A DNA stretch of 64,000 nt from contig CACCAS010000002.1 of the NCBI GenBank assembly GCA_902544065.1, forward strand, positions 132,669 to 196,668, written 5' to 3'. Shown here piece after piece: positions 40,335 to 63,131 of this stretch (position 1 is the stretch's first letter; the number at the start of each line of letters is the position of its first letter). The DNA comes from an uncultured Pelagibacteraceae bacterium (GTDB taxonomy: Bacteria > Pseudomonadota > Alphaproteobacteria > Pelagibacterales > AG-422-B15). The notes beneath the pieces were generated by a model. The model saw only the letters and a program-made list of their open reading frames with translations, did no database searches and was not told where the DNA came from. The position numbers and the translations under genes are program-made.

Positions 40335-40957
40335 CTCTCTCACTTTACCCAGCCTTTTTTATATTTGCATTAATAATGGTTACTACACCCGGACCTGCCA
40401 ATCTATTATTGATGAGTTCTGGTGCTCAACATGGACTGCTCAAATCATTACCATTTGTTGCCGGTGTTACTGTTGGAAAACTTTTTTTAACAATTGGACT
40501 TGGTATAGGTTTTTTAACCTTATTAAATTCAAACCCATTTGTAATAAATGTAATAAAAATAGTTGGGACGGGTTACATTTGCTGGCTATCTTATAAAATA
40601 ATGTTTCTAAATTTAAAGCCAAATTCTAACATAGACTCAGAAAGTAAAGTACCCAGTTTTTTTAATGGCATCTTAGTGCACCCTCTTAATCCCAAAGGTT
40701 GGGCCATGGTGATCGCTGCCTATACTCAATTCACCTCTTTTGGAAGTACAAGCTCAACTTCAAACTGGACACTTGAAGTTTTAATTATAGCCTCAACATT
40801 TTTTTTAATACAATCAGTTTCTCACTCAATATGGTGCTGGGCGGGAAGTCTAATTTTTAATTTTCTAAGTCAAAAAAATTTTTTGCGTCAATCTATAGTT
40901 TTTATTTTAGCAATACTCACAGTCGGCACTGTTATTTATAGCAATTTTTTCATTTAA
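40331..40957 (+). CDS. LysE-family translocator
   Basis: TPGPAN, LNPKGW, hydrophobic profile. Confidence 0.88.
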   Translation: MTLSLYPAFFIFALIMVTTPGPANLLLMSSGAQHGLLKSLPFVAGVTVGKLFLTIGLGIGFLTLLNSNPFVINVIKIVGTGYICWLSYKIMFLNLKPNSNIDSESKVPSFFNGILVHPLNPKGWAMVIAAYTQFTSFGSTSSTSNWTLEVLIIASTFFLIQSVSHSIWCWAGSLIFNFLSQKNFLRQSIVFILAILTVGTVIYSNFFI

Positions 40958-41714
40958 TTTTCTTTAAACTATTTTTTTCAACAGATTCACTAAAGCTTGC
41001 AAATAACTTTTTTGAAAAATCGTCAGTGGTCGCAGTATATTCAGGATGCCATTGTACACCAAAAAAATATCCACTATAGCCAGACAAACTTATTGCCTCT
41101 ACTGTTTCGTCCTTAGCAACTCCTTCGGGAACTAATTCATTTGCTAATTCATCAATTCCTTGCGTATGTAGTGAATTCACCTCGATTGTTGGAGTGCCCG
41201 CCAATTTTTCAAATTTTCCATTTTCTTTTAAATAGACTTCATGTTGTTTAGAAAATTGTATATCAGGATCATCAGATTCTGGGCATCGATGATCCATTCT
41301 TCCTGGTACATCATGAATATCTGCAAATAGTGATCCTCCCAAAGCAACATTAACTTCTTGAAAACCCCTACATATTGCAAGCATAGGGATCTCATTTTGA
41401 AATATAAAATCAATCATTGGCAGCACTGTCTTATCTCTTTCAATATCTAATGGTTCAACAATTTTATCTTTATTATAAAACTCTGGATAAACATTTGAGA
41501 GGCTACCAGTTAATAAAACTCCATCAAATTTACGAAGTGTGTCTCTATAATCTACACTTGATCCAAATGCAGGAAGTATTACTGGTATACAACTAGTAGC
41601 TTCAGAAACAGCTTTAATATAATTGGTTCCAGATGCGTGGTAAGTTCGGTGCAACTCCTCTTTCTTAATAACATCTGCAAAAACTGCAATAAGTGGCTTA
41701 TTTTGGGTATCCAT
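40950..41714 (-). CDS. puuD: Gamma-glutamyl-gamma-aminobutyrate hydrolase (peptidase C26)
   Basis: DGVLLTGS.SNV, AICRGFQE, VNSLHTQG, VQWHPE. Confidence 0.85.
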   Translation of the reverse strand: MDTQNKPLIAVFADVIKKEELHRTYHASGTNYIKAVSEATSCIPVILPAFGSSVDYRDTLRKFDGVLLTGSLSNVYPEFYNKDKIVEPLDIERDKTVLPMIDFIFQNEIPMLAICRGFQEVNVALGGSLFADIHDVPGRMDHRCPESDDPDIQFSKQHEVYLKENGKFEKLAGTPTIEVNSLHTQGIDELANELVPEGVAKDETVEAISLSGYSGYFFGVQWHPEYTATTDDFSKKLFASFSESVEKNSLKKIK

Positions 41715-41763
41715 AAAAGAAATTAGTTTACTAGTATTACCATAATATCATATAACAATTTTA

Positions 41764-42969
41764 ATGGTTATTAATATTCAAAATAAAAAAACTGAAATAA
41801 AATCTCTTTCTGCTTGGGATGATGTTCTTAATTTAGATGATCAGCTTTCAGCTGAAGAAAAAATATTGCAATCAACTGTGCGAGCATACTGTAAAGAAAA
41901 ACTGCTTCCAAGAATAATTGATGATAATAGAAATGAGAATTTTAGCAGAGAAATCTTTACTGAAATGGGAGAACTAGGTCTTCTCGGCTCGTACTTAGAT
42001 GGTTATGGATGTGCGGGGAGTAATTATGTCTCCTATGGACTAATTACTCGTGAGATAGAAAAAATCGACAGTGCGTATCGATCTATCATGTCAGTGCAAA
42101 CTAGTTTGGTAATGTACCCTATACATAAATTTGGAAGCGATGAACAAAAAGAACATTATCTACCGAAACTAGCAAAAGGAGAATTGATAGGTAGTTTTGG
42201 ATTAACCGAACCAGATGCTGGGAGTGATCCAGGCGCCATGAAAACTAAAGCGGTAAAAGTAAAAGGTGGATATGAACTGAATGGAACAAAAACATGGATC
42301 AGTAATGCGCCATATGCTGATGTAATAATTATTTGGGCTAAGGATGAAGAAAATGTAATTAGAGGTTTCATTGTTGATAGGGAGTCAAAAGGTCTCTCTA
42401 CTCCGAAGATAGAAGGAAAATTATCGCTAAGGGCATCGGCAACAGGACAAGTAATTATGGAAAATGTATTTTGCCCTGAAGATAAAATTTTAGCTAAAAC
42501 AACAGGTTTAAGCGGACCTTTTCAATGTTTAAATAGTGCTCGTTATGGAATTTCATGGGGCGCAATTGGAGCAGCTGAATTTTGTCTGGCAACCGCAAGA
42601 CAATATGCTCTAGATAGAAAAATGTTTGGGAAGCCGATTGCGGGGACACAGTTAGTTCAATCTAAATTAGTAGATATGCAAACGGAAATTGCGTTAGGGT
42701 TGGAGGCCGCATTAAGAGTCGGACGCCTTATGGATAAAGGTCAATCTGACAGCAATATGGTAAGCTTAATCAAAAGAAATAATGTTTCTAAAAGTTTGGA
42801 AATATGTCGTAACGCCAGAGATATTTTAGGCGGTAACGGTATTTCAGATGAGTATCATGTTATGAGACATATGGTTAACTTAGAAACTGTAAAAACTTAT
42901 GAAGGAACTCACGATGTTCACACATTGATAATGGGAAGAAATTTAACAGGTATTCAGGCATTTAAATAA
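41764..42969 (+). CDS. gcdH: Glutaryl-CoA dehydrogenase
   Basis: [47 protein letters not shown]. Confidence 0.9.
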
Positions 42970-42973
42970 AATT

Positions 42974-44341
42974 ATGGCATATCTAAACAGAACTACTAAA
43001 CAATGGCAGGAGATTGATACCAAACACCACCTCCATCCCTTTACTGACTATAAGTCACTTGCTGAAGAGGGAAGTATCATTGTAACAAAGGCAGATGGTG
43101 TGCACCTGACTACATCTGATGATAAGCAGCTATTGGATGCTATGTCTGGGCTGTGGTGTGTTAATGTCGGCTATGGCCGAAAAAATCTTGCTGAAGTTGC
43201 CTATAAGCAAATGCAAGAACTTCCATATTATAATTCTTTTTTTAAAACTGCGACACCACCATCAATTGAGCTAGCAAGAGAATTAGCAGAGTTAAGTCCT
43301 CATGATTTAAATCATGCATTCTTTTCATCAAGTGGTTCAGAAGCCAACGATACAGTTGTAAGAATGGTGAGAAGATATTGGGACCTAAAAGGTAAGCCAC
43401 ATAAGAAAACTTTTATAAGCAGAGAGTTTGCTTATCATGGAAGTACAATGACAGGCATGAGCCTTGGTGGGATGACTGCAATGCACGCGCAAGGCGATAT
43501 GATGCCAGGTTTTGAACATGTTTTGCCACCTTATTGGTATAAATACGGAAACGAGATGTCCCATGAAGATTTTGGAATTTTCGCAGCAAATAAAATTGAA
43601 GAAAAGATCAATGAAATAGGTGCTGATAATGTGGCAGCATTTATTGGTGAGCCAATTCAAGGCGCTGGGGGTGTAATCATTCCGCCAGACTCTTACTGGC
43701 CTAGAGTTCAAGAAATATGTAATCAGCATGATATTCTTCTTGTGGTTGATGAAGTTATTTGTGGATTTGGAAGAACAGGTAATTGGTTCGGATCTGACAC
43801 GTACAATATCAAACCCGATATCATCACAATGGCCAAAGGCATAACTTCAGGCTACATACCACTATCAGGCATCATGATTGGAGACCGTGTTAGTGATACA
43901 ATTATCAATGAAGGTGGGGAGTTTTATCATGGTTATACATATTCTGGTCATCCAGTAGCGTGCGCTGTAAGTCTTGAAAATCTTAAGGTTATTAAGGAAG
44001 AAAATCTTATTGAGCAATCACGACAAGTATCAATATATCTAGAGCAACAAATGCGCGAGATTGAAAAACATCCGTTAGTTGGAGAAGTCAGGATGAAAAG
44101 TTTTATAGGAGCTGTTGAATTAGTTAAAGATAAAGAAAAGATGGAAATGTTTGAAGATACGGGTGTTGTTGGAACAATATGTAGAGATTACTGTATAGAA
44201 AATGGCTTAGTAATGAGAGCTGTCAGAGATGGTATGATTTTCTGTCCACCTCTAATCTTTAATAACTCTCATGTGGATGAATTATGTGTCAAACTAAAAA
44301 AATCTTTAGATCAAACACATAATCATATTTCTAAATCGTAA
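42974..44341 (+). CDS. Class III PLP aminotransferase (SpuC/putrescine-pyruvate type)
   Basis: [57 protein letters not shown]. Confidence 0.88.
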
Positions 44342-44769
44342 CTATAGAACTCATTATCCCTGATATATCCGAGTGACTCATATAAAGATTGGCCAGGTAT
44401 ATTAGCTTTATTTGTAGAAAGTTCTATTGAGCCAAATTTATTCTCAGTTGCATAATTTTTAGCAGCATCCATTAAAGACTTAGCTATACCTTTTCTTCTA
44501 AATTCTTCTCTTACGAATAAGTCGTATAGAACAATTTTTTTTCTCACATTCACTGAGTCAAAAGTTGGATATAATTGTGTGAAGCCTGCACAAGTACCCC
44601 CTTCTTCCTGAAAAAAGATGATTGACTCATTATTCTCAAGCCTCTGCTTAATATATTTTTGTGCAATTTCAACATTTGACTCCTGGTTATAAAAGACTCG
44701 ATACAAATTAAAAACTTCTCCAATCATATCAGAGTATTCTATGGTTGCTCTTTTAATATTTTCTGTCAT
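44323..44769 (-). CDS. GNAT N-acetyltransferase
   Basis: GFTQLYP, LYDLFV, RRKGIA, N...QSLYESLGY. Confidence 0.85.
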
Positions 44770-44771: not shown

Positions 44772-45929
44772 CTAGTTTCTTATAGTTCTATAAATTGAAA
44801 TCATTAAGAAAATAAAAGTAAAAAATACAATTGTATATATAAAACCAAAAGGACCAAAAATATCCATAACTCTTCCTCCAATCATTGGACCAATTAATGA
44901 ACCACACTCAAAAACCATAACTAATATTGCCGTTGCTCCTGCAACCTGTGAAGCGGTATATCTTTCCCCTAACATTGTAAGTGATATTGAGAATATACCA
45001 CTAGCTGCTCCTCCCCAAACAAAGCAACTTAATGCCACTAAATAGAAGTTTCCTAAGAAAACACCTATAATTATTGGACAAACAAAAGTACAGAAGACAG
45101 CAATATTCATGAGTAGTCTTTTATTCATTCTATCAAGTAAAATACCAATTAATGGCTGACATATGACACCACCAACCAAGGTAATAGTGACAAACTGAAG
45201 AGCAATGTCTTGTGAAAACTGGTTCTTAATCATAAAGATTGGAAAAAATGATACGAACATAACATCGTCCAAGCCACAGAGTATTGCTGCTCCAAAAATA
45301 GTCGGTGCAGCTATAATCGTTGCTAAAATTGGAAGAGATTTTTTCTCAGGCAATTCTTGATCTGCTATATCAAGTGTTATGAGTGGAATAATTGCTATAA
45401 ATGACATTGCCGCAATCACAATAAATGGAAGCCATCCCTCGATACCTGTTAAAGATATAACAAGAGGGCCTATTGCAAGCCCAATAATAAATACCGTATT
45501 GTATATTGTGACTATTTTACCGCGATTTGAATCATTAGCCATCGACAACATCCAAGTATCAAAAGCATTCCATGCAAGTGCACCAGCAAATCCAATAAGG
45601 AAGCGTATAATGAACCACGCAGTTAAACTTTCAAATATAGGAAAGGTAAAATATAAAATAATTGTAACTATTTGAGCAATGATAATTGATCTAGATAACC
45701 CAATTGCATGAATAATGATTGGTGTAATTCTAACAAATAGAATTACCGCCAATGGTTGAGCGACAACATTTAATCCAATTTGTGTATTACTGAAACCTCT
45801 TGACTCAAGTATTAATGATAGTAAGGGAATAAGGGTTCCAAGTTTTATGCCAATAATAAGAGCACATAAAAATAAAACAATATAGGTTTTATAATTACTT
45901 CCAAGTATAGATTGAAAAGTTGAGATCAC
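44772..45929 (-). CDS. MFS transporter (YcaD/YfkF-like)
   Basis: About 12 TM segments, RFLIG, RGK, QPLIGILLDR. Confidence 0.82.
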   Translation of the reverse strand: MISTFQSILGSNYKTYIVLFLCALIIGIKLGTLIPLLSLILESRGFSNTQIGLNVVAQPLAVILFVRITPIIIHAIGLSRSIIIAQIVTIILYFTFPIFESLTAWFIIRFLIGFAGALAWNAFDTWMLSMANDSNRGKIVTIYNTVFIIGLAIGPLVISLTGIEGWLPFIVIAAMSFIAIIPLITLDIADQELPEKKSLPILATIIAAPTIFGAAILCGLDDVMFVSFFPIFMIKNQFSQDIALQFVTITLVGGVICQPLIGILLDRMNKRLLMNIAVFCTFVCPIIIGVFLGNFYLVALSCFVWGGAASGIFSISLTMLGERYTASQVAGATAILVMVFECGSLIGPMIGGRVMDIFGPFGFIYTIVFFTFIFLMISIYRTIRN

Positions 45930-46585
45930 AAAAACCGTTTTTCATCTATATAAATATTTCTAAAGTATTTTTTTACTAGTCCTTTACAAAATACATGCGA
46001 GTACATTTTAGGATCAAATAAAATTCTTTGCCATAATCCGTCTACCATTGATAGATAAGTCTCACTTATTTCTCTTGGTGTAAGAAAAGTCTGATCAGTT
46101 AAAAAATTTACTTCTTTAATTAACTTTTCCATCTGAGATGAATATATTTCATCTTGCTTTTGACAGATTGTTAAATAAGAAGGACGAAATTTTACTTCAC
46201 TATAAAACGATACCCAGACTGCAATTTTATTTCTATTTGCAATTTTACTACTAAAATCATTTTCAATTATTTTAATTACTCTTCCAACTGGATCTAAGTT
46301 ATTATCTTCGAATATTCGTTGCCAAGAATTTTTATATTCATCTGATAGAAATTTTAGTGAACTAAGCAAAAGATTTTCTTTAGATTTAAATCTAAAATTT
46401 GCATAACCTTGTGATACCATTGCTTTCTTAGCTACTTGTGCAATCGTCGTGTCTGCGAGACCTCTTTTAGCTATAGTTTCAATTGTTGCGTCAATCAGTT
46501 TTTGATGATTGATTGAAAATTCCTGTTCTTTAAGTTGAGGTTCACTAATTTTTTTGGGATTTATATTCATAAAAGAACCATACAC
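45926..46585 (-). CDS. TetR-family repressor, BetI-like
   Basis: LIDATIETIAKRGLADTTIAQVAKKA HTH, FKSKENLL, W..F, DGLW; start may be 46570. Confidence 0.85.
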   Translation of the reverse strand: MYGSFMNINPKKISEPQLKEQEFSINHQKLIDATIETIAKRGLADTTIAQVAKKAMVSQGYANFRFKSKENLLLSSLKFLSDEYKNSWQRIFEDNNLDPVGRVIKIIENDFSSKIANRNKIAVWVSFYSEVKFRPSYLTICQKQDEIYSSQMEKLIKEVNFLTDQTFLTPREISETYLSMVDGLWQRILFDPKMYSHVFCKGLVKKYFRNIYIDEKRFL

Positions 46586-46612
46586 AAAGTTTAATCATAA
46601 TGGTAGTTTTGT

Positions 46613-46630
46613 ATTGAATAATCATTCAAT
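46613..46630. promoter_or_regulatory. Palindromic operator ATTGAA-N6-TTCAAT (BetI-like) overlapping a -35 box
   Basis: ATTGAATAATCATTCAAT between the repressor and the divergent operon; TTGAAT-N16-TATCAT promoter. Confidence 0.72.
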
Positions 46631-46665
46631 ATGGCTATCATGTAAATTCAATATTCGTTCATTTT

Positions 46666-48294
46666 ATGCCAAAAAATACTCATGATGTAATTGTTATAGG
46701 AGCCGGCCATAACGGCTTAACAGCAGCTAGTTATATGGCTAAAGCTGGTCTCGATGTTGTCGTTTTAGAAAAAAATGATTGGATAGGTGGTGCTGCGGTG
46801 AGCCGAGAGCTTTACCCTGGATGGAAATATTCAAATTGTTCCTATGTTTGTAGTTTATTAAGACCTGAGATCATGCGTGACTTGGAGCTTTATAAATATG
46901 GACTTCAAATTATTCCTTATGAAGGCAGTGCAACGATGATGAAAAATGGAGACTATTATACTCATTATCATGATCATGATATGACCATCAACTCTATTAG
47001 ACGTCATTCTCATAAAGATGCAGAAGCTTACGAAAGATATAGCCGTGATGTCCTCAGGCAATGTAAAATTATTAAGCCTCTTCTCAAAATGACGCCTCCT
47101 GACTTAACATCGTTCAAACCAAAAGATTTATTTGGCGCACTGGAGTTTGCAAAGCATTTTGCTGCAAAAGATGAATTAGGTGGGCTAGGAGAAAAAGAAA
47201 TTTATGACACAATTCGTTTTTATACTATGAGCATCAGAGATTACTTAGAAGAATATTTTGAAAGTGAAATTACCAAAGCTCACCTTGCTGGTAGCGCAAT
47301 TATTGGAACTGCTCTAGGCCCATGTTCACCAGGATCAGCTTATGTACTGTTGCACCACTACATGGGTGAGGTTGATGGATCAGTTGGTTCATGGGGATAT
47401 GCACGAGGTGGAATGGGATCTATTACTCAGGCAATGATGGGCTGTCTAAAAGATCATGGAGGAGAAGTAAAACCAAGTAGCGAAGTAATAAATGTTATTA
47501 CAAAAAATGGAAAAGCAATCGGTGTTGCTACACAAAATGGAGATGAATACTATGCTAAGAAAATAGTTTCCAACCTTGATGTCAAAAGAACTTTTTTAAA
47601 GATTACTGAAGAGAAGGACCTTCCAGATGATTTTGTGCGAAGTGTTAAAAATTTTAAGATAAGGGGTTCATCTGGTAAATTAAATATTGCATTAGATGGC
47701 TTGCCAGACTTTCCTTGTATTCCTGAAGGTGATCCAGGTGGTGGCGGAGACATGCACTTCACAGAAACCATAGAAGAGATGGAAGGAGCTTACGATGATT
47801 GGAAAAGGGGAGAATGGTCACGTAATCCATATGTTGATATGTGCATTCCATCCAAAAGTGACCCTACAATGGCTGAGCCAGGTAAACATTATATGTCTGT
47901 ATTTATTCAGTACGTACCATTTAACCTTGCAAATGGTGGTTGGAATGAAGAGAGAAAGCAAGAATTTGGAAGACACATAGTTGATTGTATTGCTGAGTTT
48001 TCGCCTAACTTTAAAGACCTAATTAATCATTATGAGGTACGAACACCACTAGAATTAGAAAACGAGGTTGGTTTGACAGAGGGTAATATTTTTCAAGGAG
48101 AGTTGACCATGGACCAATTAATGTTCAATAGGCCAGTTCCTGGATATGCGCAGTATCGGACTCCATTAAAAAATATGTATATATGTAGCTCTTCAACACA
48201 TCCAGGTGGAGGTGTAATGGGTGCACCAGGAGCTAACGCAGCTCGTGAAGTTCTATTAGACATGAACGTTCCACAAAAAGGAAATTATTATTAA
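46666..48294 (+). CDS. Phytoene-dehydrogenase-like FAD oxidoreductase (COG1233/PYROXD2-like), subunit 1
   Basis: IGAGHNGL, GGAAVS, GSAYVLLHH, GGMG, GNIFQGE, THPGGGVMGAPG.NAA. Confidence 0.85.
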   Translation: MPKNTHDVIVIGAGHNGLTAASYMAKAGLDVVVLEKNDWIGGAAVSRELYPGWKYSNCSYVCSLLRPEIMRDLELYKYGLQIIPYEGSATMMKNGDYYTHYHDHDMTINSIRRHSHKDAEAYERYSRDVLRQCKIIKPLLKMTPPDLTSFKPKDLFGALEFAKHFAAKDELGGLGEKEIYDTIRFYTMSIRDYLEEYFESEITKAHLAGSAIIGTALGPCSPGSAYVLLHHYMGEVDGSVGSWGYARGGMGSITQAMMGCLKDHGGEVKPSSEVINVITKNGKAIGVATQNGDEYYAKKIVSNLDVKRTFLKITEEKDLPDDFVRSVKNFKIRGSSGKLNIALDGLPDFPCIPEGDPGGGGDMHFTETIEEMEGAYDDWKRGEWSRNPYVDMCIPSKSDPTMAEPGKHYMSVFIQYVPFNLANGGWNEERKQEFGRHIVDCIAEFSPNFKDLINHYEVRTPLELENEVGLTEGNIFQGELTMDQLMFNRPVPGYAQYRTPLKNMYICSSSTHPGGGVMGAPGANAAREVLLDMNVPQKGNYY

Positions 48295-49811: not shown

Positions 49812-51011
49812 ATGACACAAGATCTTAGATATTCAGCCCTAAAGAAAACACCTTTTCATTCAAGAACCAGTTTAGCTTCGCGAACGAACAAATATTATAA
49901 CTGGAATGGATATACTGTGCCTACAGAATATTCAACTACTGAGCTTGAATATACAGCTGCAAGAAATGGAACATCAGTTATGGATTTAACCCCTATGGGC
50001 AAATATGAAATTACGGGAGGTCATGCGCATCAATTTGTTGATTACTTAGTTACTAGAGATTTATCCGAAATGAAGGACAATACAGTAGCTTATATCATCT
50101 GGTGTAATGAAGATGGAAAGGTGATTGACGATGGTACTATTTTCAAATTTTCTTCAACAAAATTTATGCTTTGCTGTGCTGTTAAAATATATAACTGGCT
50201 TAATGATTCAGCTTATGGTTTTGATGTTACAATTAGCGATGTGACAGATACAATTGCTGCATTAGCAATTCAAGGGCCAACATCCTGCTCAACTTTAAAA
50301 ACATTTGGAGCAACAGATCTTGAAACATTAAAACCTTTTGAAATGAGAGAATATAAGATTGATGGTTTCGATATTTTAATATCACGTACAGGATTTACAG
50401 GTGATTTGGGTTATGAATTGTGGACTGACCCAAAAAATGCAGAACTGACGTGGGATAATATTGAAATTGCTGGCAAGGAATTAAAGTTGAGACCTTTCGG
50501 AATGAATGCTCTCGAGATGACAAGAATTGAAGCTGGGTTTATTCAAACCAATACAGACTTTATGGCTGCTGAAGATTCATTGAGACCAACCAGAATGAGA
50601 TCACCTTATGAAATTGGAATGGGATGGCTTGTACACTTAAATAAAAACTCATATTTTGTTGGGAAGAAAGCTCTTAAAAAAGAAAAAGAAGAAAGCACTA
50701 CTGAGAGATGCTTAGTAGGCCTTGATATAGATGGAGATAAGCCAGCGCATGGTTCTGTGATCTATAATAGCAAAAAAGAAGACATTGGCATTGTAACTGC
50801 AGCTCTATGGTCTCCGATTATGAAAAAAAATATTGCACTGGCTTCACTTAAGAGACCTTATGGAATACAAATAAAAGAAAATATATTTGCAGAAATTTAT
50901 CACCCTGAAGAACTTGAGTACCGTAAGATATGGGCAAGATGCAAGGTAGTTAAAAGGCAATTTTTTAACCCTGAAAGAAGAAATAAAGTTCCTGCAGATC
51001 TATATGAATAG
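49812..51011 (+). CDS. GcvT-family aminomethyltransferase (folate-binding)
   Basis: TPFH, G.VIDDG, LAIQGP, ISRTGFTGDLGYEL, RIEAG. Confidence 0.88.
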   Translation: MTQDLRYSALKKTPFHSRTSLASRTNKYYNWNGYTVPTEYSTTELEYTAARNGTSVMDLTPMGKYEITGGHAHQFVDYLVTRDLSEMKDNTVAYIIWCNEDGKVIDDGTIFKFSSTKFMLCCAVKIYNWLNDSAYGFDVTISDVTDTIAALAIQGPTSCSTLKTFGATDLETLKPFEMREYKIDGFDILISRTGFTGDLGYELWTDPKNAELTWDNIEIAGKELKLRPFGMNALEMTRIEAGFIQTNTDFMAAEDSLRPTRMRSPYEIGMGWLVHLNKNSYFVGKKALKKEKEESTTERCLVGLDIDGDKPAHGSVIYNSKKEDIGIVTAALWSPIMKKNIALASLKRPYGIQIKENIFAEIYHPEELEYRKIWARCKVVKRQFFNPERRNKVPADLYE

Positions 51012-55129: not shown

Positions 55130-56014
55130 ATGTTACAAGTTTGGAAGTCTTTTTATGCAAGGAGTGATCCTGCAAAAGCTTATTCACTTCTTTCTCCTGC
55201 ATTGATCCTGGTTACTTTAGCTATGCTTATACCGTTAGGTCTAATGTTAAGTTTTAGTTTTTTTACTCAAACCAGTTTTACAGAGATTGACTACTCTTTT
55301 ACAATCACAAGGTACATTGATTTTTTTCAAAGTAATTTGCTTGTTTCACTACTTATAAAATCTGTGAAGATTTCGTTTATTGTAACTTTCGTAACTCTTC
55401 TTACCGCATATCCTGTCTGTTATTACATAGCTTTTTATGTAAAAAAAAATAAAATGTTATGGCTTGTTTTACTCACTTTACCTTTCTGGACATCCTATCT
55501 TTTGAGAGTTTTTTCTTGGAAAATTATACTTGGAACTAAAGGAGTCATTAATTCCTCTTTAATTAATGCGGGACTGCTTAGTGAACCTCTCACTTTTCTA
55601 ATGTACTCTGAGACCGCAGTTATCATAACGCTTACCCATGCATGGGCAGCATTTGCTTTACTGCCTTTGTATGTTTCATTGGATAAAATAGATTTTTCTC
55701 TAATTGAAGCTGCCAGAGACTTAGGATTGTCTAGGTTAGAAACTTTTTGGAAAATTACTCTTCCATTATCCCTTCCTGGAATAATTGGCGCCATACTAAT
55801 TATCTTTATTCCAACTGTTGGAGATTATGTAACCCCTGCTCTACTTGGGGGAACTGATGGAAGAATGCTATCAAATATGATCCAAGCTTACTTTGGAAAA
55901 GTAAACAACCTTCCGCTTGGTGCCGCCTCTGCGACCATCATGCTTATTACTGTAGCAATAGTGACAATGATTGTTTCATATACAACAAAAAAACTTACTC
56001 AAAGGATTTCATAA
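55130..56014 (+). CDS. potB: PotB-like ABC permease
   Basis: LPFWTSYLLR..SW, EAARDLG, LPLSLPG, GDYVTP.LLGG. Confidence 0.85.
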   Translation: MLQVWKSFYARSDPAKAYSLLSPALILVTLAMLIPLGLMLSFSFFTQTSFTEIDYSFTITRYIDFFQSNLLVSLLIKSVKISFIVTFVTLLTAYPVCYYIAFYVKKNKMLWLVLLTLPFWTSYLLRVFSWKIILGTKGVINSSLINAGLLSEPLTFLMYSETAVIITLTHAWAAFALLPLYVSLDKIDFSLIEAARDLGLSRLETFWKITLPLSLPGIIGAILIIFIPTVGDYVTPALLGGTDGRMLSNMIQAYFGKVNNLPLGAASATIMLITVAIVTMIVSYTTKKLTQRIS

Positions 56015-56830
56015 GTGGAACAAAAGAACAATACATTGTTAATCTATACATTATTGTATTTTGCATTTTTATATATTCCTGTTTTATTCTTGCCCATTTT
56101 CAGTTTTAACGACGCAAATTACATGTCATTTCCACTTTCAGGATTTACAACAGAGCATTATGAAGAAATGTGGGAAAAAACAAACTTACATAAAGCTCTT
56201 TGGGCTAGTATCAAAGTAGGTATAGTTGCAAGTGTCGTCAGTACAACAATTGCACTTTTTGCAGCCAAAGCATTCGCACGTTATAAATTCAGAGGGCAAA
56301 ATATTTCTTATGGGGCCATTATGATTCCTTTTTTAATCCCTGAAATTATTTTAGCGGTTGCAATACTTGTTATTTGGTTGAGCCTCGGTTTTAAATTGGG
56401 ACTTGTGCCGGTAACTTTAGGACATATTCTTTTTTGTACTCCATTTGCAATGCTTATTTTAATCGCTCGTATAGAAGGATTTGATTTCTCACTTGAGGAA
56501 GCCTCAAGAGACCTTGGGGAAAACGCTTGGGGGACATTTTACCGAGTATCTCTTCCATTATACTTACCAGGCATAATAGCTTCACTTTTATTGAGTTTTA
56601 TAATTTCATTTGATGAATTTGTTCTGGCATTCTTCTTAACTGGAAGCGATGCTACATTGCCAATGTACATGTGGGCTCAAATGAGATTTATTCAAAAACT
56701 ACCTCATGTATTGGCTTTAGGAGCAGTTATAATTGTATTTACTACTTTTATAGTTTTGTTAGCATTCTGGTTGAGAAACCTTGGTCAAGGAAAAGACAAA
56801 GCTGAATTTGGAATAAAAATACATGAATGA
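56015..56830 (+). CDS. potC: PotC-like ABC permease
   Basis: FLYIP...FSFN, LEEASRDLG, SFDEF, TLP; GTG start. Confidence 0.85.
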   Translation: MEQKNNTLLIYTLLYFAFLYIPVLFLPIFSFNDANYMSFPLSGFTTEHYEEMWEKTNLHKALWASIKVGIVASVVSTTIALFAAKAFARYKFRGQNISYGAIMIPFLIPEIILAVAILVIWLSLGFKLGLVPVTLGHILFCTPFAMLILIARIEGFDFSLEEASRDLGENAWGTFYRVSLPLYLPGIIASLLLSFIISFDEFVLAFFLTGSDATLPMYMWAQMRFIQKLPHVLALGAVIIVFTTFIVLLAFWLRNLGQGKDKAEFGIKIHE

Positions 56831-57905
56831 TTCATTTATACAGATAAACGAGATTTCCAAGCACTTTGGACAAGTAAAGGCAGTAGATAATGTATCCTTT
56901 GAAATCAAAGAGGGAGAGTTTTTCTCTCTACTTGGCCCGTCTGGTTGTGGTAAAACAACCTTATTGAGATTATTAGCCGGCTTTGAGTATCCAACTAGTG
57001 GAAATCTATTACTTGATGGCAGTGATATTACCGCATTACCTCCTGATAAAAGACCTACAAATATGGTTTTTCAGAACTACGCAATTTTTCCACACATAAA
57101 CGTTGAGAAAAATGTTCAGTTTGGTCTTAGAAAACTTGGCTTAACAAACGATGAAATTATCAAAAGAGTCAAGGATGTTTTGTCGTTGGTTAAATTAGAA
57201 GGATATGAAGAACGCTATAGTAGCCAACTATCTGGAGGTCAAAGACAAAGAGTGGCATTAGCAAGGGCTTTAGTAAGACAACCCAAAGTATTATTGTTGG
57301 ATGAACCACTTGGTGCATTAGATAAAAAGTTACGTGACGAAATGCAACTCGAACTGAGAACTCTTCAAAAGGAGATTGGAATAACTTTTGTGTTTGTAAC
57401 GCATGACCAGCAAGAGGCTATTAGTATGTCTGACCGAGTTGCAGTAATGAGTGAAGGGAAAATTCAGCAGATGTCATCTCCAAACGAATTATATAAAAAT
57501 CCTCAAAATATATTTGTTAGTGACTTTATTGGTGAAACTAATTTTTTAAAAGCTAAGACAGATTCTAAAGATGGAGAATATATTATTGTTAACATTGAAG
57601 ATCTTGGTTCATTTAAAATAAAAAATAATCTCAATATAAGTGAAAATGCCTCAGATGTTATTTGCAGTGTTCGTCCAGAGACAATGATGATTGACAAAGA
57701 AAAATCAGACTGGGATATTTGCTTAGAAGGTAAAATCAAGCAAACATCATATCTAGGTGAAATGACAAAATTTTACGTTGAAACTAAAGAAATTGAAAAA
57801 ATTATAACCGTATCATCACAATATTTTGATAATCAGTCTTTTCAAGATGGTAAATGCTTTATCAGCATAAATTTAAACGATATTTCCTTACTCAATAAAA
57901 AATAG
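56823..57905 (+). CDS. potA: PotA-like ABC ATPase
   Basis: GPSGCGKTT, FQNYAIFPH, LSGGQRQR, LDEPLGALD, C-terminal TOBE-like region. Confidence 0.9.
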   Translation: MNDSFIQINEISKHFGQVKAVDNVSFEIKEGEFFSLLGPSGCGKTTLLRLLAGFEYPTSGNLLLDGSDITALPPDKRPTNMVFQNYAIFPHINVEKNVQFGLRKLGLTNDEIIKRVKDVLSLVKLEGYEERYSSQLSGGQRQRVALARALVRQPKVLLLDEPLGALDKKLRDEMQLELRTLQKEIGITFVFVTHDQQEAISMSDRVAVMSEGKIQQMSSPNELYKNPQNIFVSDFIGETNFLKAKTDSKDGEYIIVNIEDLGSFKIKNNLNISENASDVICSVRPETMMIDKEKSDWDICLEGKIKQTSYLGEMTKFYVETKEIEKIITVSSQYFDNQSFQDGKCFISINLNDISLLNKK

Positions 57906-57956: not shown

Positions 57957-59036
57957 TTAACCGCCAGCCACCATTTCAGCCCACTGAGCTTCCATGTAGT
58001 CGGTAACCTCGTCAGTTGGCATCACTGAGAACATTCCATTATTTAAATGTTCTATAGGATTTGAAGCAACACCACGCTCAGCTAATTCATCAGCTGTAAG
58101 AGTGCTAAAGCCAGCTTTATTACTGTGTCCATAACCCCACTCACTTAATAAGTAAGCAGACGTTTCAGCACTAGTAGCACCGTTAATCATTGCGTATGCT
58201 TTATCAAGATCTGCACCTTTAACAATTGCAAGACCACACGCCCAAGTCATTGTGCCATTAGCAGGTTGCATCATTTTTGCTCCTGCACTCCATGCTATTT
58301 CGTTCCATCCTAGTGCTACGTCAATTTCTTCGTTTCCTAGGGCCTCTATCATTGAAGATGTATCTCCGAAGAATGCACGAATTTGACCATTATCTCTCAT
58401 TTCACGAAACTTATCGATACCTTGGTCAATAGCAGCTTTTGTTAACTGATCTTGCTCTCTGATGTCAATTCCAAGATGGTGCATCATTAAAAACAGTGAA
58501 TCTGCAGCTGAGTCTAAGATACCAACTTTACCTTTTACTCTTGGGTCTTCCATTAGCGCAAAGCTCTCGTTAGAGGCATCCATCCAATCAACTCTGTCTG
58601 CCATGTAAAACAATGTAGTATCTCCCCAGTCCACTGGTGCGAAATAATGCTTGCCATCAACAATGCCACTTGGCAGGTCTCTAACCTCAGGGAACATCTC
58701 ATCCCAGTTTTCAATCCTTGATGGATCAAGTGGTTCTAATACGCCTGCTCTCACCCATCTTTTTATTTCACCTTGACATGGCCATGCTAAGTCAACTTCA
58801 AAACCTGCTTTTAGTTTTTGCAATCCTTCTTCAGCATCACCAAAGATTGAGTATTCAGGGGAACCATGCTCTTCAGCGTATGTTCCAAATAGGCCATCAT
58901 CATCATAGCCACCCCACAAGAAGACTGATCCAGGTCCTGGCTTAGACTGTGCAACTTCTTCTTCTTGTTGAGAACATGCAGCAATAAGAGCTATTAAAGC
59001 TGCTCCCAATAGAACTGTAAATATTGATTTTTTCAT
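57957..59036 (-). CDS. PotD/PotF-like ABC substrate-binding protein, predicted lipoprotein
   Basis: Lipobox IAAC, WGGY, KLKAG, P.DWG, W.CGLAI, AYAMIN; AAGGA SD. Confidence 0.82.
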   Translation of the reverse strand: MKKSIFTVLLGAALIALIAACSQQEEEVAQSKPGPGSVFLWGGYDDDGLFGTYAEEHGSPEYSIFGDAEEGLQKLKAGFEVDLAWPCQGEIKRWVRAGVLEPLDPSRIENWDEMFPEVRDLPSGIVDGKHYFAPVDWGDTTLFYMADRVDWMDASNESFALMEDPRVKGKVGILDSAADSLFLMMHHLGIDIREQDQLTKAAIDQGIDKFREMRDNGQIRAFFGDTSSMIEALGNEEIDVALGWNEIAWSAGAKMMQPANGTMTWACGLAIVKGADLDKAYAMINGATSAETSAYLLSEWGYGHSNKAGFSTLTADELAERGVASNPIEHLNNGMFSVMPTDEVTDYMEAQWAEMVAGG

Positions 59037-59102
59037 TATTAATCATCCTTTTTATTTGTTTAGAAGAAAAATTGTACACCTATAAGGTCGTTGGTCAATA
59101 TA

Positions 59103-60599
59103 TTAAAGGTGAATCAAGGGGCGATTTTTGTTTGAATTAAGCCATGGATCTAACATTTCGTAGTTGTACCCACCCTGGAATACCAATTCATCGCAGTAAG
59201 ATCGCGAAATAATTTGGATTCCTGTTGGAATATTGTTAGAGCTTAATCCTGAAGGGACTGTTAGGACTGGTAATTTCCCCAACATATTAAATGGATGTGA
59301 CATAACCCAAGAAAAATCATTACACTTCTGCTCTTTATTATTGATAACGATATTTTCATTAACAATATCAATATCAGCCTTAATTGAAGGTAAAGAGTTT
59401 GTAGGACATATAAATAAATCGTAACTGTCTAATATTGGTCCAATTTCTGAATACATTCGGCCTGTGATTTCTGAGCTTTCAATAACATCGTATCCAACAT
59501 AAGCCCCTATTTTATCATGATAGTACTTCTCATTATTTTGTATCGCTCTGATATGTAATTCAGGGACTTCAGCAAACATTTTTGCATAATCAGTTAATAG
59601 TCTTTTTTCATCGTTTGAAAATTTTGCAATGAGGCCATAAAATGAATTAGCGTAATGACTAAAGCAAACCGAATTTACTTCATCTCGACTCCAATTTAAT
59701 TTTACTTCTGTAATTGATGCGCCAAGAGCCTCAAATTTTTTTAAGGCCTCTAATGTATTTTTTTCAACTTCTTCATCAACCTCAAAAAATCCAAGATCAA
59801 GTGAATAAGCAATTTTCCAGTTCTTAATATTCTCAAACTTAATAGGAATAATTTTTTTAGGTCTTAGTGAGGCAATATCATTTTTATTTGGACCACTCAT
59901 AACATTTTGCATAAGGGCACAATCACTAACAGTTCTCGCAAGGGGACCAACAACACAATACGGATCATGATTAAAAGGATAACCCATTGGATTTCTTCCA
60001 TATGGAGGTTTGTAACCAACGACTCCGCAGGCCCCAGCAGGGATACGAATTGATCCACCTATATCACTACCAGTTGCAAGTGATGCACAACCCGATGCTA
60101 GTGCGGCAGCACTCCCTCCACTTGAACCTCCCGGTGTCATATCTAAGTTCCAGGGATTTCTTGTGACGCCATTCACTTTGGAATGGCAGAATGATGTCAG
60201 TGAAAACTCTGGGTTAGTTGTGCGCGCATGAATTATTGCACCAGAGTTTACAAGGGACTCTACATCTACGTCAGTTCTTTCTGCTATTACGTCTTTATAG
60301 ATTAAGCTTCCATTCTTATTAGGTTGTCCCTTTATATTAACTTCATCTTTAATTGCTAAAGGTAAACCTTCCAAAGGCAAAGTAGATTTATCTTCTGTAT
60401 ATTTTAATTCTGAATGTTTTGCTTCTTTCAATGCTTCTTCGAAGCGGAAAAAATTAAAAGCATTAATTTTTGGGTTTACATTTTCAATTCTTTTTATTGT
60501 CTCATTTAATAGCTCAACTGGAGACAAAGATTTATTTTTAAATTTTTCTAGGGCTTCAGAAGCTGATAAATAACAAATATCGAGGTCTAAACTGTTCAT
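59103..60599 (-). CDS. Amidase-signature family amidase
   Basis: GLPLAIKD, TRNPW, GGSSGGS, GSDIGGSIRIPA. Confidence 0.9.
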   Translation of the reverse strand: MNSLDLDICYLSASEALEKFKNKSLSPVELLNETIKRIENVNPKINAFNFFRFEEALKEAKHSELKYTEDKSTLPLEGLPLAIKDEVNIKGQPNKNGSLIYKDVIAERTDVDVESLVNSGAIIHARTTNPEFSLTSFCHSKVNGVTRNPWNLDMTPGGSSGGSAAALASGCASLATGSDIGGSIRIPAGACGVVGYKPPYGRNPMGYPFNHDPYCVVGPLARTVSDCALMQNVMSGPNKNDIASLRPKKIIPIKFENIKNWKIAYSLDLGFFEVDEEVEKNTLEALKKFEALGASITEVKLNWSRDEVNSVCFSHYANSFYGLIAKFSNDEKRLLTDYAKMFAEVPELHIRAIQNNEKYYHDKIGAYVGYDVIESSEITGRMYSEIGPILDSYDLFICPTNSLPSIKADIDIVNENIVINNKEQKCNDFSWVMSHPFNMLGKLPVLTVPSGLSSNNIPTGIQIISRSYCDELVFQGGYNYEMLDPWLNSNKNRPLIHL

Positions 60600-60651
60600 A
60601 AGATTATTTTATTTTAATTTATTAATTAATAAAATATATTGAATTCACACC

Positions 60652-61746
60652 ATGATTGATCAAAACATTAGAGACATTATTAAAAATCAAGACCCTAATA
60701 CAGGAATGGATCAGCTTTTTTTCACCAACAAAGCATTGTTTGATCTAAGTTATGAGGCTGTTTTCAAGAAACAGTGGGTATTTCTTACTCATCTATCTTG
60801 TTTTAATGAAAACAATACATTCATTTATCAAATTAACGGAGGGTTTGTTGAAATAAAAAAGTCTAAAAATAATAATTTAGCTATCTCATCATCTTTACCT
60901 GATTTCAAATGTCATTTAAAAGTGTATGAAAGCTTAATTTTTGTCAACTTTTCTGATGTACCATATTCATTTGAAGAATTCATAAAACCACTAGAACCAT
61001 ATATTAAAATTCATGGCCTTAATGATGGTAAGATCGCATTTCAAAAAGACTTTATATTTAATGCTTCTCATCTTGCAACCATTCACAACTTCAAAGAATG
61101 CGCGCATTGTTGGGGAGGTGAGTTTACTCACAAAGATTATTTAAGTGTTCATGGGGAGGCGTATTGTAATTCTTATGGAGCTGGAGTTGGCTCAGGAATT
61201 GAATCTCCTGAATTCAATCAACGAATAAAAGATTGGACATTTGAAAGTCAAAATAAAGGTTTGTTTGTTGGCGAGTACAGTGAAGATACCAATAAATATT
61301 TTAGAATTGCAGAGCGCACTCCTTTACCTGAAGGCATTATGTCTGAGACAATGGATGGTAGCTATTCATGCTCTTCACTGATGGGGGACTTTAAAACCAT
61401 AGGACCGGATCATGGTTATACCGCTATTGGTTTTAGCCCATTCAATAGCTTTGTTGCCAATAATGAATTTGTAATTCTTTTTTTATTTACTCCTGTTAGT
61501 CAAAATAAAACAATCGTTACTCAATATTGGGTTACTCACAAAGATGCTGAAGTTGACATTGATAAAATGATTTTTCTTTGGGACCAAACATCAACAGAAG
61601 ATTCTCAATTGTGTGAAATGAATCAAAAGGGCATTGAAAGTAGAGCTTATCAGCCTGGAAAGTATGGTGAACTAGAGACAAGCTTGGTTCAGTATCAAAA
61701 GTTCTATCTAAGTCATTTACAAAATCACGTTAATGGACTGACTTAA
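60652..61746 (+). CDS. Rieske-oxygenase catalytic (SRPBCC) domain protein lacking the [2Fe-2S] motif
   Basis: Aligns by eye along its length with 52482..53720; keeps NFKECAHC...H and ED...CE.NQ.G but has no CxH/CxxH. Confidence 0.75.
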   Translation: MIDQNIRDIIKNQDPNTGMDQLFFTNKALFDLSYEAVFKKQWVFLTHLSCFNENNTFIYQINGGFVEIKKSKNNNLAISSSLPDFKCHLKVYESLIFVNFSDVPYSFEEFIKPLEPYIKIHGLNDGKIAFQKDFIFNASHLATIHNFKECAHCWGGEFTHKDYLSVHGEAYCNSYGAGVGSGIESPEFNQRIKDWTFESQNKGLFVGEYSEDTNKYFRIAERTPLPEGIMSETMDGSYSCSSLMGDFKTIGPDHGYTAIGFSPFNSFVANNEFVILFLFTPVSQNKTIVTQYWVTHKDAEVDIDKMIFLWDQTSTEDSQLCEMNQKGIESRAYQPGKYGELETSLVQYQKFYLSHLQNHVNGLT

Positions 61747-61760
61747 GTCAGGGATATAAA

Positions 61761-63131
61761 ATGGAAGTTGCTACACAAGCTGAATTTGATGAAATATTAA
61801 GTCAGTACAATAATATTCAATATGTCGATGCAATCTTCACAGATTTATGTGGTTATGTAAGAGGAAAACGTTTCCCGGTCCTTGAAGCAAATAAAATATT
61901 CTCAGATGGAGTCCTACTGCCTTTTAGTGCTTTCTATTTGGACGTACTAGGGGGAGTTACAAATACTTTAAATTTAGGTTGGACAGACGGTGATCCTGAC
62001 GGTGTTCTGGTACCTGTTAAAGGCAGTATTAAACCAGTTCCGTGGGATGAACGTTTCTTACAAGTTCTTATCACAATGAGAAAAGAGCAGGAAAATTGGG
62101 GAGTGATACAAGACCCATCAGAGGTTGACCCTAGAAATATTCTTAAAAAAGTTATGAAGAATTTTAAGAACACCGGATTGAAACCTGTTGTTGCTTTTGA
62201 ATTAGAATTTTATCTCTTGGACAAAAATAGGGATAAGTTTGGAAAACCAATACCCGCTGAAGGGGCTAATAAAACACATGTATACGGTATGCCAGATCTT
62301 GATCTCTTCGGTAAGTTATTTGACGACATTAATAAGAATTGCGAAATGCAAAATATACCAGCGACTACGGCTTCAAGTGAATTTGCCGCGGGACAGTATG
62401 AGATTAATCTAAAGCACACAGGAGATCTTCTAAAAGCCGCAGACGATGCAGCTTTATTAAGACGAATTATTAAAGAGACAAGTGAACGACATGGCTATGA
62501 AGCAACATTTATGGCAAAACCTTTTTTAGATCAAACGGGCAATGGAATGCACCTTCATCTCTCTGTTTATGACGAGAATGAAAAAAATATATTTACAACT
62601 CCCAATCGTTATGGAAATAAAAAATTAAAAAGTGCTATAGCTGGTTTTCAGTCAATGTTTTATGATAGTTTCCCAATTTTTATTCCAAATCGCAATGGTT
62701 ACAGAAGAATAGAAACAAGAAATTTTGTTCCTGTTAATACAAGCTGGTCGTGGAATCGAAGAGATGTTTCATTAAGAATACCAGCTGGATCAAATGACGC
62801 AAAAAGAATTGAACATCGTGTGGCTTCATCAGATGCCAATCCTTACTTAGTCCTAGCATGCTTGTTAGCAGGGCTGCATAACGGTTTAACTAATGAACTA
62901 ACTCCATCAAATCAAGTTGACTTTGATAATAATGAAGGAGCGGATAAAGAAGCCGATATTGATATGCCAAAAAATATGGATCAAGCGTTGCGTCGGTTTC
63001 AATCTTCTAAACTGTTAAAAAAATATCTTGGAAAAGAATATCTTGATCTCTACACTGCTGCAAAACAAGGAGAAATTGATCATGTCGAGTCAAGTTTTGT
63101 TCCTCGAGAGGAATATGATCTTTATTTATAA
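61761..63131 (+). CDS. Glutamine-synthetase-family gamma-glutamyl-amine ligase (PuuA-like)
   Basis: RGKR, FELEFYL, E...GQYEINL.H, TFMAKP, GNGMHLH, RIEHRV..DANPYL. Confidence 0.88.
   Translation: MEVATQAEFDEILSQYNNIQYVDAIFTDLCGYVRGKRFPVLEANKIFSDGVLLPFSAFYLDVLGGVTNTLNLGWTDGDPDGVLVPVKGSIKPVPWDERFLQVLITMRKEQENWGVIQDPSEVDPRNILKKVMKNFKNTGLKPVVAFELEFYLLDKNRDKFGKPIPAEGANKTHVYGMPDLDLFGKLFDDINKNCEMQNIPATTASSEFAAGQYEINLKHTGDLLKAADDAALLRRIIKETSERHGYEATFMAKPFLDQTGNGMHLHLSVYDENEKNIFTTPNRYGNKKLKSAIAGFQSMFYDSFPIFIPNRNGYRRIETRNFVPVNTSWSWNRRDVSLRIPAGSNDAKRIEHRVASSDANPYLVLACLLAGLHNGLTNELTPSNQVDFDNNEGADKEADIDMPKNMDQALRRFQSSKLLKKYLGKEYLDLYTAAKQGEIDHVESSFVPREEYDLYL

Follow-up and report, generated by a model that had tools for sequence, protein, structure and literature searches.

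Gene content of the island

We analysed 64,000 nucleotides of DNA (the window, meaning this whole stretch) from an uncultured SAR11-type bacterium (GTDB lineage Pelagibacterales; AG-422-B15), taken from assembly GCA_902544065.1, contig CACCAS010000002.1 (contig C2), positions 132,669 to 196,668. Window positions 40950-63131 carry a 22-kb island of amine-catabolism-type genes that is borne by one SAR11 family. At its centre stands a trio of genes coding for two paralogous flavoproteins, FADa and FADb, and a GcvT-like folate-binding protein. The island takes up about 1.7% of the 1.26-Mb genome, which is 93.8% complete. The list of open reading frames (ORFs) gives 21 intact genes in four transcription units between flanking genes (Table 1). 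The left flank consists of a PdxA gene and a LysE-type exporter, and the right flank of an AlaX-type editing protein. In the first unit, the PuuD-like gene is divergent from GcdH and AT1, and in the second, GNAT, MFS and TetR are divergent from nine genes that extend over 11.2 kb in the order FADa, FADb, GcvT-like, AT2, Rieske1, DAO, PotB, PotC and PotA, all on one strand and separated by gaps of -8 to 67 nt. The substrate-binding protein (SBP) and amidase genes make up the third unit, Rieske2x and the glutamine synthetase (GS)-like gene the fourth. No compositional sign of a recent foreign insert was found in the window, where the G+C content runs from 0.27 to 0.39, and near-identical loci in public genomes belong to SAR11-type Pelagibacterales.

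The genes were assigned to families with NCBIfam and Pfam profiles and with sequence searches of the PDB. A strong or curated threshold was passed only by GcdH, the two transaminases and PotA; the PuuA-, PuuD-, GbcA-, AmaA/PuuB-, BetI- and PotF-type matches are each under their cut-off. GcdH matched the bacterial GCDH structures with 509-523 bits over residues 15-400, the next family that is not GCDH scoring 248 bits, and electron-transfer flavoprotein (ETF) is available to it from two adjacent PF01012 genes on contig C5. The two transaminases, AT1 and AT2, are 35% identical. The PuuD-like protein scored 126.4 bits with PRK11366 (cut-off 266) and the GS-like protein 186.6 bits with GGputSyn (cut-off 650), with similar scores for the GlnA and type III GS models. 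For DAO the best NCBIfam match was the L-pipecolate oxidase AmaA (157 bits, cut-off 600) and the top PDB match a glycine oxidase (54 bits). The two permeases matched PotB and PotC best, under cut-off, and the top PDB matches of the SBP were PotF, PotD and SpuD/E-type proteins at 31-61 bits. Searches of the PDB with the SBP, GS-like, DAO and amidase proteins returned generic family matches only and no clue to specificity. Inside the region, no aldehyde dehydrogenase (PuuC; PF00171) was found; the genome has five full-length ones outside it, with PF00171 matches on contigs C1, C3, C5 and C16. The single family-III CoA-transferase of the genome is also outside the region.

A first-pass annotation had listed these gene classes over the same interval, and every one of them was found as an intact ORF. 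Some of its finer assignments have to be narrowed. The genes that it called PuuA-, PuuB- and PuuD-like do match these families, at scores under the curated cut-offs, and PuuC is absent from the region. Of its two Rieske oxygenases, Rieske1 has the full motifs, and the gene at 60652-61746 has the catalytic domain only and lacks the Rieske ligands. Its BetI-like repressor does belong to the TetR family; it falls under both BetI cut-offs, so that the argument from it to a quaternary amine is sub-threshold.

Table 1: Features of the island, with positions in the window and the match or observation behind each name.
Feature	Position	Strand	Basis
PuuD-like gamma-glutamyl-amide hydrolase (peptidase C26)	40950-41714	-	Pfam PF07722 Peptidase_C26, 194.6 bits
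GcdH, glutaryl-CoA dehydrogenase	41764-42969	+	human GCDH 1sir/1siq, 538 bits, residues 18-400
AT1, class III omega-aminotransferase	42974-44341	+	PRK07480, 733 bits, cut-off 510 passed
GNAT N-acetyltransferase	44323-44769	-	weak GNAT-family matches only
Major facilitator superfamily (MFS) transporter	44772-45929	-	PRK03633, 86.6 bits, under cut-off
TetR-family repressor	45926-46585	-	BetI models matched under cut-off
Candidate palindromic operator	46612-46631	no strand	inverted repeat between TetR and FADa
FADa, CrtI/PYROXD2-like flavoprotein	46666-48294	+	Pfam Amino_oxidase, 52.8 bits
FADb, paralogue of FADa	48294-49811	+	Pfam Amino_oxidase; start overlaps FADa stop by 1 nt
GcvT-like folate-binding protein	49812-51011	+	PF01571, 195 bits, and PF08669; directly after FADb stop
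AT2, omega-aminotransferase	51079-52482	+	PRK07036, 653 bits, cut-off 618 passed
Rieske1, Stc2/GbcA-type Rieske non-haem-iron oxygenase	52482-53720	+	GbcA model, 303 bits
DAO-family FAD amine oxidoreductase (PuuB- or pipecolate-oxidase-like)	53738-55093	+	PF01266, 178 bits
PotB, PotC, PotA ABC importer	55130-57905	+	PotA TIGR01187, 377 bits, cut-off 355.6 passed
SBP, divergent PotF/PotD family	57957-59036	-	SBP_bac_8, 65.8 bits; PotF, 45-58 bits
Amidase-signature amidase	59103-60599	-	PF01425, 287 bits; PRK06169, 300 bits, cut-off 506
Rieske2x, oxygenase catalytic-domain paralogue without Rieske ligands	60652-61746	+	PF00848 only
GS-like, candidate gamma-glutamyl-amine ligase	61761-63131	+	PF00120, 300 bits

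Immediately to the left of the island, at 32665-37815, there is a Liv/Urt-type ABC transporter with an SBP, two permeases and two ATPases. It is syntenic in the SAR11-type loci, and we found no evidence that it is a member of the island.

The trio, the Rieske proteins and the repressor

FADa and FADb are 30% identical to each other and both retain the dinucleotide-binding glycines. FADa is the most conserved subunit, with a mean column identity of 77% among 20 sequences from three locus groups; the figure for FADb is 55%, its GxGxxG glycines being invariant. Over their full length these proteins match Amino_oxidase and CrtI/CrtD, and their DAO matches are confined to the N-terminal dinucleotide-binding stretch (residues 7-47). 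CrtI (4dgk, 66 bits) was the top PDB sequence match of FADa. Its predicted structure (pLDDT 75, pTM 0.80) ranked CrtD (4rep) first by fold, followed by the nicotine oxidoreductase NicA2, monoamine oxidases and putrescine oxidase. The names of the 120 listed homologues are generic, and the Atlas clusters nearest FADa are automatically named phytoene desaturase family or [quoted passage not shown]. The third member of the trio aligned with PF01571 over positions 8-254 of 255. Its PDB matches were T-protein (1woo, 188 bits), the trimethylamine N-oxide demethylase Tdm (165 bits) and the folate domains of dimethylglycine dehydrogenase (DMGDH) and SoxA (87-90 bits).

A model of the complex of FADa with the GcvT-like protein scored 0.65 (0.65, 0.72 and 0.42 in the separate runs), against 0.00 for the best of three controls. 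The runs agreed in at least 66% of the contacts, with a partner pLDDT of at least 85. By a rough calibration, in which our own alignments were used, 58 of 80 solved complexes and 2 of 110 mismatched pairs attained a score of 0.65. The model supports a predicted binding of the two proteins. DAO-type enzymes with a GcvT-like domain have been solved, and some memory effect in the model is possible; to our knowledge no structure has been solved in which a CrtI-type flavoprotein is bound to a T-protein. By our own count, the residues of the modelled interface are invariant no more often than those of the whole proteins.

One candidate for a FADa-FADb fusion, the 904-amino-acid protein P0101, begins as an N-terminally truncated FADa and passes into FADb through a stretch unlike either protein. 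We take this for a frameshift or an artefact of gene calling and not for evidence of a fusion. In a single-cell assembly of a HIMB59-like bacterium (L055:13092-15458), the GcvT-like gene and the next acyl-CoA dehydrogenase gene form one ORF of 788 amino acids. Either the two genes are truly fused there or the sequence contains an error.

Rieske1 contains both the CSHRG...CPYHAW stretch (CxH...CxxH) and the ECYHCGPAH mononuclear-iron motif, and it matched PF00355 and PF00848. GbcA was its best NCBIfam match, at 302.8 bits with a cut-off of 670. Among the PDB entries, 3n0q, 3vca (Stc2) and 4qup, labelled "Monoxygenase; demethylase", scored 241-245 bits, and CntA 148 bits. The closest relative of Rieske1 among 300 sampled alphaproteobacterial genomes has 43% identity. 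Rieske2x stands 7 kb from Rieske1, directly upstream of the GS-like gene. It has no CxH/CxxH, and the ligand stretch appears as a 32-residue gap in its alignment to Rieske1; as predicted from these missing ligands, it cannot carry a Rieske cluster. It retains the His...His and Asp-containing pattern of the catalytic domain. Of 36 genomes of one genus (g1), 31 have the gene as an intact ORF (67-100% identity), which indicates that it is kept by selection, and it is found in 0 of 24 genomes of the sister family Pelagibacteraceae. Rieske2x and Rieske1 might form mixed oligomers. The genome has two Rieske-bearing oxygenases (window 52482-53720 and C1:62701-63315), although a search of all of it gave no PF00175 domain.

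The repressor scored 95.4 bits with the BetI model TIGR03384 (cut-off 201.3) and 94.8 bits with PRK00767 (cut-off 118). It is divergent from FADa in 37 of 39 SAR11-type, 23 of 24 HIMB59-like and 10 of 17 distant loci. The intergenic region holds a perfect inverted repeat of 8+8 nt, TATTGAAT-N4-ATTCAATA, the core of which (TTGAA...TC.TTCAA) is invariant in all nine aligned loci, five SAR11-type and four HIMB59-like, and thus in two orders, whereas the flanking sequence is not conserved. At up to one mismatch this is the sole copy in the window. Since the mean expected by chance is 1.46, a single match is within chance expectation and the evidence for the operator lies in its conservation. No excess of further copies was seen in the window at up to three mismatches, where 118 matches compare with 142 expected by chance. 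Because the two divergent units share this conserved putative operator, GNAT-MFS-TetR and the run from FADa to PotA plausibly form one regulon. Another perfect palindrome, the 16-nt TTGAACAGCTGTTCAA, lies at 51045-51060 in the 67-nt gap between the GcvT-like and AT2 genes. It resembles the half-sites of the TetR operator at two mismatches, and matches that loose are no commoner than chance.

Distribution, synteny and expression

Phyletic counts were made on genomes that are at least 80% complete, from the window's family, with its three genera, and from Pelagibacteraceae. FADa is present in 24 of 26 genomes of the former and in 0 of 224 of the latter. The corresponding counts are 23 of 26 and 0 of 94 for GcdH, and 24 of 26 and 0 of 94 for the GS-like gene. 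The three genes share their contigs, with conserved spacing between them. One genome (G024) is rearranged so that GcdH stands beyond the GS-like gene, where it still adjoins the island. The co-occurrence of the subclusters, on which the first-pass annotation relied, is therefore borne out in the window's family.

One scan of species-representative genomes confirmed the trio at 501 loci, of which 80 were kept for counts of neighbouring genes (39 SAR11-type, 24 HIMB59-like and 17 distant; misses in these counts include contig ends). The gene order of the island recurs in the 39 SAR11-type loci, and a core recurs in the two further groups, so that the clustering is not a chance neighbourhood. In the HIMB59/MarineAlpha5-like loci, FADa is 71-75% identical and the gene order is different. 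These loci keep TetR (23 of 24), FADb (23), GcvT (22), PotB (22), the SBP (21), and AT2, MFS, GNAT and the GS-like gene (20 each); the MFS protein is 28-32% identical there, and the amidase is found in 8 of the 24. Their downstream genes code for two other acyl-CoA dehydrogenases, an ADP-forming acyl-CoA ligase and a CaiD-like hydratase. The PuuD-like gene is present in 30 of the 39 SAR11-type loci.

The distant loci come from Gammaproteobacteria, Hyphomicrobiales and metagenome-assembled genomes (MAGs) of Rhodospirillaceae, and their FADa is 62-66% identical. GcvT follows the flavoprotein pair in 12 of the 14 distant loci with called genes, the other two stopping at a contig edge. Counted by group, it accompanies the pair in 36 of 39 SAR11-type, 22 of 24 HIMB59-like and 12 of 17 distant loci. 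TetR, a PotF-like SBP with PotABC, class-III transaminases and GNAT (4 of 17) are recurrent neighbours, and an aldehyde dehydrogenase (L093) and an APC amino-acid permease (L084) were also seen. In an unrelated MAG (L078), the trio is near a PotF-like SBP (303 bits), a PRK07036 transaminase of the AT2 type (727 bits), an old yellow enzyme/Fe-S flavoenzyme and a GbcA-like Rieske gene.

No paralogue of the SBP was found in the genome at the search settings used. Two other Pot-type systems are present, at C1:33500-47000 (L146) and C8:1-12000 (L147). One of them adjoins an aldehyde dehydrogenase and a type III GS (TIGR03105, 601 bits, above cut-off), and in the other a PotD-like SBP is encoded close to an AptA-type omega-transaminase and the sulfoacetaldehyde acetyltransferase Xsc. 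The SBP of the window is 84-91% identical to that of 9 HIMB59-like loci. For the whole SBP/PotABC cassette the identity between the SAR11-type genome and these nine loci is 82-91%, whereas FADa has only 72-75%. Twelve other HIMB59-like loci have an SBP version at 49-53%, and the SAR11-type loci L044 and L047 a PotBCA version at 64-69%. From these identities it looks as if transporter alleles have been exchanged between orders.

Contigs from marine RNA libraries that are at least 92% alike (four runs of three studies) cover 30, 29, 29 and 24 of 30 bins between 43400 and 63300, and bridge the GcvT/AT2, Rieske1/DAO, GNAT/MFS and MFS/TetR junctions. RNA libraries may contain DNA, and a contig that spans two genes is no proof of one transcript. 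The contigs are only consistent with transcription, and with the high expression of polyamine-type transporters noted for these groups in PMC11366302, and the SBP is as closely alike in part of the HIMB59-like lineage as given above. Their depth cannot rank genes, contigs of other organisms being summed in it. Depth was zero or very low in some bins of single runs (such as 45392-46719 in X2 and X5, and 48712-50703 in X5), which says nothing on an absence of transcription. Over the SBP (57957-59335; two bins) it was 24-1410, compared with 0-83 elsewhere in the island in the same four runs.

Proposed route, alternatives and relation to known systems

We hold, with slightly more belief than doubt, that the island is one lineage-specific catabolic unit whose substrate, or small group of related substrates, is an N-methylated amine or amino acid with a positive charge. 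In such a route, the compound would be imported by the divergent PotF-type SBP with PotBCA. If its nitrogen is quaternary, the Stc2/GbcA-type Rieske oxygenase would take off the first methyl group as formaldehyde. FADa, FADb and the GcvT-like protein would form a complex oxidising the remaining N-methyl groups, and the iminium carbon would be handed to tetrahydrofolate (THF) to give 5,10-methylene-THF, functionally as in sarcosine oxidase or dimethylglycine dehydrogenase. The primary amine or amines set free would be removed by the omega-transaminases AT2 and AT1 or, alternatively, through gamma-glutamylation by the GS-like ligase followed by the DAO oxidase and then the PuuD-like hydrolase or the amidase, with aldehyde dehydrogenases supplied from elsewhere in the genome. 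In the window's family the skeleton would end as glutaryl-CoA, oxidised by GcdH with ETF, an endpoint that suggests a C5/C6 skeleton like that of lysine, pipecolate, cadaverine or 5-aminovalerate. A toxic or acetylated intermediate may be dealt with through GNAT and MFS, and the repressor would leave the divergent promoter once the compound or an intermediate binds.

The island would thus work like a Rieske demethylase and a folate-linked flavoprotein demethylase joined to a tail of Puu-like genes, transaminases and GcdH, an analogy in which each part also departs from its model. As in SoxABGD, DMGDH and sarcosine dehydrogenase (SARDH), a flavoprotein would be combined with a GcvT-fold folate module that would pass an N-methyl carbon to methylene-THF. 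The trio lacks a defining feature of these enzymes because its flavoproteins are not of the DAO type; they are CrtI/PYROXD2-type members of the amine-oxidase superfamily. It also differs in having two paralogous flavoproteins and a folate protein that is a separate polypeptide, and it appears to act on a polyamine-like or basic amine taken up by the cell, not on sarcosine. Rieske1 shares the Rieske and mononuclear-iron motifs of Stc2, GbcA/BmoA and CntA, but it scores under the GbcA cut-off, no FNR-type reductase was found in the genome for it and it has a cluster-less paralogue nearby. A GS-like gene, a DAO oxidase, a C26 hydrolase, an omega-transaminase and a Pot importer in one region recall the Puu pathway of E. 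coli and the Pau pathway of Pseudomonas, although the Puu-type matches are under the equivalog cut-offs, PuuC is missing, demethylation-type genes are interleaved and an amidase-signature enzyme is added. The strong GcdH, the ETF, the class-III transaminases and AmaA as best match of DAO are features of the route from lysine or cadaverine to glutaryl-CoA, yet the region has no DavB, DavA, lysine decarboxylase or glutarate CoA-transferase. The importer is like PotABCD and PotFGHI in its PotA-type ATPase, two permeases and PotD/PotF-family SBP, matches from which ligand specificity cannot be read. The central trio fits none of the described enzymes that we found in the open-access literature, and no paper describing the flavoprotein-pair/GcvT module or the island was found among open-access papers and bioRxiv.

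Several observations weigh against this reading of the island. The functional steps are inferred from family membership, mostly below curated cut-offs. The fold of FADa is nearest to carotenoid desaturases (4rep, 4dgk) and not to proven amine oxidases, so that the oxidation of a C-N bond by FADa is putative. The supply of electrons to Rieske1 is a further difficulty. PF00175, the domain of FNR-type reductases, gave 0 matches in this 93.8%-complete genome and was found in 11 of 14 reference genomes as a control; only two ferredoxin-type Fer2 domains (PF00111) were matched in the genome, none of them in the window. No GbcB/CntB-type reductase for Rieske1 was found, and a reductase of another type may be present. 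The relationship of FADa to PYROXD2 is a lead taken from automatic Atlas names. The genomes of the window's family are kin, and a presence pattern that they share is by itself no proof of one pathway. Given the other downstream genes of the HIMB59-like loci, the carbon skeleton may differ between lineages.

Other points on the same side favour the main rival, a mosaic of independent amine modules that lie side by side in a streamlined genome and serve no single substrate. Its modules would be a methylated-amine demethylation operon with the transporter, a Puu/Pau-like set for plain diamines, and GcdH with a transaminase for lysine or cadaverine. Outside the window's family, PuuD, GcdH, AT1, Rieske1 and DAO are beside the trio in 0 of 24 HIMB59-like and 0 of 17 distant loci, so that only the related genomes of a single family tie them to the core, and even the amidase is infrequent in the HIMB59-like loci. 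A GcdH homologue was present in all five other trio-bearing genomes tested, on contigs of uncertain linkage to the trio. The four transcription units each have their own divergent intergenic region, and as the TetR operator occurs once in the window, SBP-amidase, Rieske2x-GS and PuuD/GcdH-AT1 may be regulated separately. We nevertheless regard a mosaic as somewhat unlikely. One presence/absence pattern is common to all parts across the order, GcdH still adjoins the island after the rearrangement in G024, and the genes are flanked by housekeeping genes in a 1.26-Mb genome. In 20-22 of the 24 loci from a second order, the GS-like gene and SBP/PotABC accompany the trio, and plain polyamines may already be served by the other Pot systems of the genome, which come with a transaminase, an aldehyde dehydrogenase and a GS-type gene of their own. 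For the proposal of the first-pass annotation that a single pathway leads to glutarate, this means that the linkage holds within one family and is absent from the HIMB59-like and distant loci, where GcdH is not by the trio. Its demethylation reading of the flavoprotein pair and GcvT has been strengthened by the FADa-GcvT model and by the Stc2/GbcA-type Rieske gene near the trio in L078, and its overall interpretation is partly supported.

Two further routes were also weighed. The genes could serve plain polyamine catabolism, with FADa/FADb as polyamine oxidase or dehydrogenase on spermidine, norspermidine or acetylated polyamines in a back-conversion-like sequence of GNAT, flavin amine oxidase and amidase that transaminases and Puu-like enzymes finish, the GcvT-like protein being accessory or unrelated. 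All of these gene types are present (a Pot transporter, GNAT, amine-oxidase-superfamily flavoproteins, an amidase, two omega-transaminases and Puu-like genes), and the fold search with FADa also returned putrescine oxidase and monoamine oxidases. Polyamine-type ABC transporters are reported to be highly expressed in SAR11 and AEGEAN169 (PMC11366302), and several polyamines are used by SAR11 (PMC8437039). This explanation is quite improbable to us, as cleavage of an unmethylated polyamine gives a folate protein no role, and the GcvT-like gene directly follows FADb, stays with the pair in most loci and was modelled bound to FADa. The SBP, moreover, is only remotely PotF/PotD-like (45-58 bits), and the genome has two further Pot-type systems. 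Ordinary glycine betaine catabolism appears very improbable. Here Rieske1 would be glycine betaine monooxygenase, and the trio would replace the dimethylglycine and sarcosine dehydrogenases that the genome lacks. GbcA is indeed the top NCBIfam match of Rieske1 and BetI that of the regulator, both far under cut-off. The genome has only two GCV_T-domain genes, that of the island and a DmdA-like one at C3:235144-235815 (236 bits, cut-off 410). A PF02347 search found no GcvP in it, and no frame of the size of DMGDH/SARDH or of a DAO+GcvT fusion was seen. At its completeness of 93.8%, it seems to be a SAR11-type genome without the glycine cleavage system and the classical enzymes of betaine demethylation. 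However, four of the five other trio-bearing genomes have 12-16 GCV_T matches, and because these include frames of about 810-1010 amino acids, the size of DMGDH, SARDH or SoxA, the trio is no replacement there. No GbcB-type reductase was found in the genome. The recurrent neighbours of the trio, Pot-type transporters and omega-transaminases, are not needed for betaine breakdown, and GcdH, PuuD, the amidase and the GS-like protein would be without a role.

If the island is one catabolic unit for an N-methylated amine, a lysine-family N-methyl compound is the most attractive, as yet unproven, substrate. Candidates are N6-mono-, di- and trimethyllysine and cyclic or shortened compounds related to them, such as N-methylpipecolate, pipecolate betaine and 5-aminovalerate betaine. 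It is possible, although unlikely, that the island is more precisely a complete and so far undescribed SAR11 clade-II-type mineralisation route for free N-methylated lysine-family compounds from eukaryotic plankton, through the Rieske protein, the PYROXD2-type/GcvT enzyme and glutaryl-CoA. Human PYROXD2 is an orphan mitochondrial flavoprotein of the CrtI-type oxidoreductase family, for which we know of no reported GcvT partner. The Atlas clusters nearest FADa bear its name automatically. The locus of the human gene is a replicated quantitative trait locus for N6-methyllysine, N6,N6-dimethyllysine and N2-acetyl-N6,N6-dimethyllysine (PMC9730628, PMC7878905, PMC13352909). This genetic association fits an N-methyl-amine substrate and gives no reaction, and by analogy it offers a lead towards N-methyl-amine chemistry, not a test.

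SAR11 bacteria are among the most abundant in the ocean, and the metabolic differences between their subclades are poorly known. What the window adds is the SAR11 context of the trio with GcdH and Puu-like genes, the family-level pattern, the shared putative operator, the cluster-less Rieske paralogue and the missing reductase. The island points to a specific compound of dissolved organic nitrogen as a niche axis and, if the less likely lysine-family route given above is true, to a nutrient niche that would separate the window's SAR11 family from Pelagibacteraceae. In that case the PYROXD2 family, to which the human orphan enzyme belongs, would also gain its first biochemical reaction. The trio would be a new architecture for folate-linked N-demethylation that is widespread and has only generic names in the databases. 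Its reaction, if determined, would hint at the role of human PYROXD2, which is genetically tied to methyl-lysine levels.

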